A DNA stretch of 64,000 bases from assembly GCF_054482595.1 (NCBI RefSeq), contig NZ_CM137008.1; one strand, 5' to 3'. The notes below the pieces were generated by a model that saw only the letters and a list, made by a program, of their open reading frames with translations, searched no databases and was not told the DNA's origin. This document shows, piece after piece, positions 198 to 1,418 of this stretch. The translations under genes and the position numbers were made by a program. Each line of letters opens with the position of its first letter. Position 1 is the stretch's first letter.

Positions 198-1418
198 ATG
201 TCTCAGCCAATTACGCGTGAAAACTTTGATGAATGGATGATACCTGTTTACGCTCCGGCACCGTTTATACCGGTACGTGGCGAAGGTTCGCGCTTGTGGG
301 ATCAGCAGGGGAAAGAGTATATCGACTTCGCGGGTGGCATTGCGGTGAACGCGCTGGGCCATGCGCATCCGGAACTGCGTGAGGCGCTGAACGAACAGGC
401 GAGTAAGTTCTGGCATACCGGCAACGGTTACACCAACGAGCCGGTACTGCGACTGGCGAAAAAATTGATCGACGCCACGTTTGCCGATCGCGTCTTCTTT
501 TGTAACTCCGGTGCGGAAGCCAATGAAGCGGCGCTAAAACTGGCGCGTAAATTCGCTCACGACCGCTACGGCAGCCATAAGAGCGGTATCGTGGCGTTTA
601 AAAATGCGTTTCATGGTCGCACGCTGTTTACTGTTAGTGCGGGTGGGCAGCCAGCCTATTCACAGGATTTTGCGCCACTGCCACCAGATATCCGTCATGC
701 TGCATATAACGATATTAACTCTGCCAGCGCGCTGATTGACGACTCTACCTGTGCGGTGATTGTCGAACCCATCTAGGGGGAAGGCGGTGTGGTGCCAGCC
801 AGCAACGCATTTTTACAAGGTCTGCGTGAATTGTGTGATCGCCACAATGCGCTGTTGATTTTTGATGAAGTACAAACCGGCGTCGGGCGCACCGGGGAAC
901 TGTATGCCTATATGCACTACGGCGTGACGCCTGATCTGTTAACTACCGCCAAAGCGCTGGGCGGCGGTTTCCCGGTCGGTGCGTTGTTAGCAACCGAAGA
1001 GTGCGCCAGCGTGATGACCGTTGGCACTCATGGCACCACCTATGGCGGCAATCCGCTGGCCTCGGCGGTGGCAGGCAAAGTGCTGGAGCTCATCAATACG
1101 CCAGAGATGCTTAACGGGGTTAAGCAACGTCACGACTGGTTTGTTGAGCGTCTTAATACCATTAATCACCGCTACGGTTTGTTCAGTGAAGTTCGCGGCT
1201 TAGGTCTTTTGATTGGCTGTGTACTGAATGCCGATTACGCCGGGCAAGCGAAACAGATCTCTCAGGAAGCGGCGAAAGCAGGCGTGATGGTACTGATTGC
1301 GGGTGGCAACGTGGTGCGTTTTGCGCCTGCGCTCAATGTCAGCGAAGAAGAGGTGACGACCGGACTGGATCGCTTTGCTGCGGCCTGTGAACGCTTTGTG
1401 AGCGGAGGTTCATCATGA
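198..1418 (+). pseudogene. astC: succinylornithine transaminase astC, interrupted by in-frame TAG at 774-776
   Basis: ORFs 198..776 and 789..1418 are the same frame and together give full-length AstC; stop replaces Gln in the EPIQGEGG motif. Confidence 0.85.

Follow-up and report, generated by a model that had tools for sequence, protein, structure and literature searches.

A gene that is interrupted by a stop codon in the middle can be a sequencing error, a gene whose product is still made through or around the stop, or a true pseudogene, and this question is raised by astC on the Escherichia coli chromosome of which the window (the whole stretch of DNA analysed, 64 kb long) is a part. According to the annotation of relatives, with which the ORF order of the window agrees, astC is the first gene of astCADBE and lies beside xthA. 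Its frame at 198..1418 is 406 codons long, has codon 193 as the sole internal stop, and ends with the native stop at 1416-1418. Positions 762-788 read gtc gaa ccc atc TAG ggg gaa ggc ggt, i.e., VEPI*GEGG, exactly as given in the preliminary description, which had also named the gene astC and recognized a conserved EPIQGEGG motif at this place. The gene identity is borne out by the annotation of identical relatives and by the match to PDB 4ADB, to which the protein with Q193 restored aligned with residues 1-406 on 1-406 (E=2e-274) and 401 of 406 residues identical (five substitutions), and EPIQGEGG is present in E. coli AstC and Salmonella ArgD alike. The single CAG to TAG transition proposed there also stood, as CAG is found in every close relative and comparison with astC of the closest complete genomes shows C>T at 774 only; the frame downstream of it is intact to the native stop, as had been stated. 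With AstC of E. coli K-12 (PDB 4ADB-4ADE; paralogue ArgD), the locus shares the 406-residue frame, EPIQGEGG, and the first place in astCADBE; unlike K-12 AstC, the window frame stops at codon 193, with a product that has neither Lys252 nor the other ligands of pyridoxal phosphate (PLP). The Dcm-site context of the stop, its recurrence in other lineages, a lesion in astD (3512-3579), and a Shine-Dalgarno-like sequence after the stop go beyond that description.

The gene astC was matched in 5,424 of 5,426 complete E. coli genomes, with the best match 99.9% identical, that is, with one mismatch. In XH990, TUM18780, and 10 other complete genomes, astC is identical to that of the window except for one base. 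Compared base by base over 6.6 kb, the window and XH990 have two differences, the C>T at 774 and a 34-base insertion in astD, and over 64 kb the window and TUM18780 have six differences in all. As one specific substitution against otherwise identical relatives, the TAG at codon 193 is not a chance pattern. The T774 allele was searched for with a 55-base query centred on 774, for which an exact seed word of 28 bases is possible only with T present, and none of the 5,426 complete E. coli genomes has it. TAG193 is not the conserved normal state of the gene, and amber lineages have sisters with CAG. The features of the operon and the other changes in the window are listed in Table 1.

Table 1. Features of the ast operon and sequence changes found in the window.
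Feature	Position	Strand	Remarks
Sigma-54-type promoter element TGGCACgaaccCTGCA	110..125	+	Upstream of astC, intact; identical in sister strains
astC (succinylornithine/acetylornithine transaminase) frame	198..1418	+	Interrupted at codon 193; pseudogene; from translation, PDB 4ADB match, and annotation of XH990 and TUM18780
N-terminal ORF	198..776	+	192 aa, ends VEPI; without any PLP-contacting residue; matches PF00202
Former Dcm site	773..777	+	CCAGG in the wild type, CTAGG here; Dcm methylates the inner cytosine, which is 774
Amber TAG	774..776	+	Wild type CAG (Gln193); mutated base 774, C>T
Shine-Dalgarno-like purine run GGGGAAGGCG	777..786	+	Adjoins the stop; GTG 789/792 follow 3-6 nt downstream; possible reinitiation site
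C-terminal ORF	789..1418	+	GTG starts 789/792, giving 209 or 208 aa; holds Asp223, Gln226, Lys252, Thr281
astA	1415..2449	+	Intact; ATG overlaps the astC stop (ATGA 1415-1418)
astD (succinylglutamate-semialdehyde dehydrogenase)	2446..3958	+	Frameshifted pseudogene; product ends at TGA 3568-3570
Perfect 34-bp tandem duplication in astD	3512..3579	+	Copies 3512-3545 and 3546-3579
astB	3955..5298	+	Intact
astE	5291..6259	+	Intact
chbC in-frame 3-bp deletion vs TUM18780	~11208-11212 (chbC 11000..12355)	+	Removes Thr72 of the chitobiose PTS IIC component
tcyP H96Y vs TUM18780	20790 (tcyP 19684..21075)	-	Transition
selO D11N and one synonymous selO change vs TUM18780	40793 and 42109 (selO 40763..42199)	+	Both transitions
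All differences vs TUM18780			774 C>T (astC Q193amber); 34-bp astD insertion; chbC 3-bp deletion; tcyP H96Y; selO D11N; synonymous selO

Of the six lineage-specific changes, five affect a protein sequence; four of the six are in the first 25 kb, a region over which the best-scoring sister genomes are no more than one mismatch apart in their match to the window. The deletion of Thr72 in chbC appears to be lineage-specific, as no closest complete genome scored better over 1..25000. On such a pattern, the branch of the window clone could be longer or under less constraint, the numbers being too small for a firm reading. Papers on the sister strains were searched for, with no useful information on the window clone.

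The mutated base belongs to a former Dcm site. No CCWGG is present in astC of the window, and exactly one (773-777) appears once C is restored at 774. CCAGG is found there in all wild-type relatives, its inner C is the first base of the in-frame CAG193 (wild-type context ATC CAG GGG), and the change at this inner C is C>T (G:C to A:T). Genes dcm and vsr are annotated as intact in the near-identical sister TUM18780; the dcm locus lies outside the window. The allele, astC Gln193amber, arose when the inner cytosine of CCAGG changed to T, and the likeliest chemistry would be the deamination of 5-methylcytosine, provided that the site was methylated, to a thymine that escaped Vsr very-short-patch repair. 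The known parallel is the amber hotspots of lacI (Coulondre et al. 1978, summarized in PMC12606429), where the deamination of 5-methylcytosine yields thymine, a base that escapes uracil-DNA glycosylase. In the work of Coulondre, Miller, Farabaugh and Gilbert, the configuration is the same, with the inner methylated C of CCAGG as base 1 of an in-frame CAG that becomes TAG, and one substitution recurred independently, as in astC. The lacI hotspots come from a laboratory forward-mutation screen, whereas the astC case concerns natural isolates and a chromosomal catabolic gene, is read from sequence only, and has an enrichment that is roughly estimated. Site, base, direction of change, and recurrence all look as they would at a Dcm hotspot. 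The astC amber is a fresh example of a long-known kind of event and opens no new biological question.

In the crystal structure of AstC, PLP is held via Lys252 (Schiff base), Asp223, Gln226, and Thr281 of the partner subunit, and the active site lies in the large dimer interface, where loop 274-284 of the neighbouring protomer contacts PLP (PMC3590144). The 192-aa fragment cannot be an aminotransferase, because all PLP residues lie after codon 193; the preliminary description had noted the loss of the PLP lysine from this product, and Asp223, Gln226, and Thr281 are beyond the stop as well. One uninterrupted polypeptide with Lys252 and the PLP ligands is not encoded in the window, as the frame stops at codon 193, and the locus is an astC pseudogene and no functional member of the class-III aminotransferases (PF00202). 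Both halves of AstC match PF00202 in public gene calls, and the 208/209-aa C-terminal product is called by gene callers in public assemblies. Translation would end after residue 192, ahead of all PLP-holding residues, and AstC would be inactive unless the amber is suppressed. AstC and ArgD are functionally interchangeable according to PMC3590144, and the expected phenotype would therefore be loss of arginine catabolism, not arginine auxotrophy.

The overlap ATGA at 1415-1418 implies translational coupling of astA to astC. With termination 640 nt upstream, astA should be translated less through this coupling, and Rho-dependent polarity may follow. The astC promoter is one that we take to be sigma-54/NtrC-dependent; with its element intact and the same as in the sister strains, transcription of the pseudogene operon presumably goes on when nitrogen is limiting.

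The same stop is found in other lineages. Five distinct 192-aa AstC fragments, all ending VEPI, are present in the public protein collection, and TAG was confirmed at codon 193 in 16 of 16 loci retrieved via the 192-aa products (L004-L006, L011-L022). Together with the window, the retrieved loci form eight astC haplotype groups, which are at most 57 mismatches apart over the 1,418 bp equivalent to window 1..1418; one of the groups consists of assemblies whose sources give the name Shigella flexneri. Four groups, those of the window clone, L005, L006, and L020, have counterparts among the complete genomes at a distance of one base, and the base in question must be 774, because no complete genome has T774. 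The nearest flanking SNPs between the backgrounds are at 692-701 and 809-818, so a shared tract can be at most about 125 bp long. Independent mutation is the parsimonious reading of this recurrence, and the hotspot mutation could even have arisen more than once within the window clone. The idea of a single old amber allele, passed on by descent or recombination, was rejected, with haplotypes that differ by up to 4%, a shared tract below about 125 bp, and one-base wild-type counterparts for four groups.

As a control, hypothetical AstC truncations at other nonsense-capable codons were looked up, and only stops verified in DNA were counted, many exact control matches being genes truncated at the end of a contig, with no genuine stop. 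The non-Dcm stops verified in this way were W72 TGA in two backgrounds, W72 TAG in one, Q156 TAG in at least two, and Q207 TAA in one. Codon 193, with at least eight groups, stands against one to three at the control sites, a comparison that is semi-quantitative, as more sequence variants were looked up for codon 193. Recurrence by itself is no proof of a hotspot, because non-Dcm nonsense alleles of astC recur too in a very large public collection. Loss-of-function alleles of astC are common in nature. An 89-aa AstC fragment ending LAKN (P0054, P0055) is present on more than 400 contigs, complete chromosomes among them; its end has the look of a frameshift around codon 88-89 and points to a separate astC pseudogene allele that is widespread and belongs to another E. 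coli lineage.

The identical astC amber in assemblies labelled S. flexneri recalls the accumulation of pseudogenes in host-restricted E. coli and Shigella. At the S. flexneri amber loci, the ynj genes upstream are cut short by a transposase gene of IS type (PF01609). In S. flexneri GCA_000213735.2 (L011), the DDE transposase gene (PF01609) lies at 521-1910 in place of ynjB/ynjC, with truncated neighbours, and a transposase beside the ast operon is typical of IS-mediated decay in Shigella. The window clone is unlike this, being near-identical to ordinary commensal or clinical E. coli, with six differences in 64 kb and no IS at the locus.

The operon has a second lesion in astD. The wild-type 34-bp unit starts with CGTTGCTG, and the same 8 bases follow directly after the unit (window 3580-3587), a repeat that is the signature of replication slippage. 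The lesion resembles the Streisinger-type slipped-strand duplication between short direct repeats in being a perfect 34-bp tandem between 8-bp repeats, and it is independent of and distinct from the astC amber. The duplication shifts the frame, AstD ends after 374 of 492 residues, and the exact 374-aa product is on record (P0016). Neither XH990 nor TUM18780 has it; it is found in public assemblies, some of them with the amber in astC and some not. The AST operon therefore has two breaks, in a clone that in other respects hardly differs from ordinary isolates. One sister assembly, GCA_958334905.1 (L007), is one base off the window over 6,780 bp and has the astD duplication together with CAG193; on the strength of this one assembly, astD was probably broken first and astC second. 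This order fits the neutral decay of an already useless operon, aided by a hotspot: the 34-bp slippage duplication probably had disabled the operon, and the amber then would have fallen on an unselected pathway. In three other astC amber lineages, further ast lesions were seen, namely astB split into 46 + 399 aa (L013, 8170-9512), astD called 17 residues short at the N-terminus (L015, 8300-9727), and astD split into 118 + 370 aa with astE of 320 aa (L020, 8249-9727 and 11060-12022). These would look like decay after the first loss.

The stop as an artefact of sequencing or assembly, notably a nanopore consensus miscall at a Dcm motif, has some initial appeal, as the altered base falls within a CCAGG motif, nanopore miscalls in Enterobacteriaceae cluster at Dcm motifs, where about 70% of ONT consensus errors were found with older basecallers (PMC6591954), and the source genome is absent from the RefSeq complete E. 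coli genomes searched. Assembly GCA_029471405.1 (L004), which is independent, is nevertheless 100% identical to window 1..6776 with both the TAG and the astD duplication included, and so the assembly error that the preliminary description had allowed for is answered by the identical base at 774. The exact 192-aa product (P0001) is recorded on 43 contigs, one of them 5.2 Mb long, and under several NCBI accessions in a collection of 15 billion proteins from NCBI and Logan. The window retains 171 CCWGG sites, none of which differs from TUM18780, and none of the other five differences from that strain is within a CCWGG; the neighbouring perfect 34-bp duplication is also not a typical basecalling error. 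Both an assembly error and a nanopore Dcm-motif artefact were rejected on these grounds, the probability left to them being negligible; TAG193 is a genuine, clonally inherited allele, and an artefact is excluded for practical purposes. A real amber could still be read as glutamine by a supE-like suppressor tRNA or a near-cognate tRNA-Gln, so that full-length wild-type AstC is made. Glutamine at UAG would restore the exact wild-type protein, the original codon being CAG, and the frame after the TAG is still intact, which it is because the mutation is recent, astC being otherwise unchanged against the sister strains. Amber suppressors are rare in natural isolates. No tRNA gene, and hence no suppressor tRNA, was found within the 64-kb window, and the astD frameshift keeps the pathway blocked even with AstC restored, which makes readthrough very improbable. 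Equally improbable is a split gene in which ribosomes stop at the TAG and restart at GTG 789/792, and the halves reassemble into an active enzyme. In its favour is the sequence right after the stop, GGGGGAAGGCGG, whose predicted pairing with the 16S anti-Shine-Dalgarno is -9.3 kcal/mol, comparable to the real Shine-Dalgarno sequences of the operon (-6.5 to -11.9 kcal/mol; mean at random positions -2.3, sd 2.4), with GTG starts 13-16 nt downstream of the stop. This run is, however, the wild-type coding sequence GGG GAA GGC GGT, present in every wild-type allele, and the cut lies inside the PLP-binding portion, deletes the invariant QGEGG residues 193-197/198, and affects an enzyme whose active site is at the large dimer interface with the partner loop 274-284 touching PLP (PMC3590144). 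Reinitiation that gives a C-terminal fragment is plausible, a reassembled active enzyme with the invariant QGEGG missing is unlikely, and reinitiation might lessen the polarity on astA without restoring AstC. The wild-type coding sequence at 777-794 of the window, with GTG GTG at its end, looks like start codons behind a strong ribosome-binding site, and any stop at codon 193 is therefore well placed for reinitiation.

With an inactive AstC accepted, the remaining alternative concerns the reason for the loss, which could have been positively selected, e.g., if the amber relieved a build-up of N-succinylglutamate semialdehyde after the astD frameshift. Two independent disabling mutations in one 6-kb operon, against only four other changes in 64 kb, speak for selection, as do the order of astD and then astC suggested by the sister assembly, the production by AstC of succinylglutamic semialdehyde, the substrate of AstD (PMC3590144), the second lesions in astB, astD, or astE of the amber lineages L013, L015, and L020, and the many different astC truncation alleles in nature. 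Against it, astD is intact in most amber lineages (L005, L006, L011, L016-L019, L021, L022), and the amber therefore does not depend on prior loss of astD; moreover, both lesions have mechanisms of high rate, the Dcm hotspot and slippage between 8-bp repeats, so there is less need for selection. A literature search on the toxicity of succinylglutamate semialdehyde and on astD mutants gave irrelevant papers only. Selection for the loss of the pathway is judged unlikely. Still more doubtful is the further-reaching proposal that the single Dcm site of astC is a natural high-rate "off switch", reused when losing arginine succinyltransferase catabolism is advantageous, and that the double lesion reflects selection and not decay; if it were true, host-adapted lineages such as S. 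flexneri, or relief from toxic semialdehyde after astD loss, to which the order of the two lesions in the window clone would point, would be examples.

The reading preferred here, to which we give a probability of about 85%, is that TAG193 is an inherited nonsense mutation that arose by C-to-T change at the only Dcm site of the gene, that AstC is inactive, and that astD probably was broken earlier. The window strain and its clone should accordingly be unable to catabolise arginine via the AST pathway, as predicted from the sequence, and both astC and astD ought to be annotated as pseudogenes. As a natural case of the textbook Dcm amber hotspot the locus is a clean one, the only CCAGG of the gene lying in frame on a CAG. 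The same stop arose repeatedly across E. coli and Shigella, so mutational bias can give identical pseudogene alleles, and such alleles in different lineages do not automatically mean shared ancestry, recombination, or selection.
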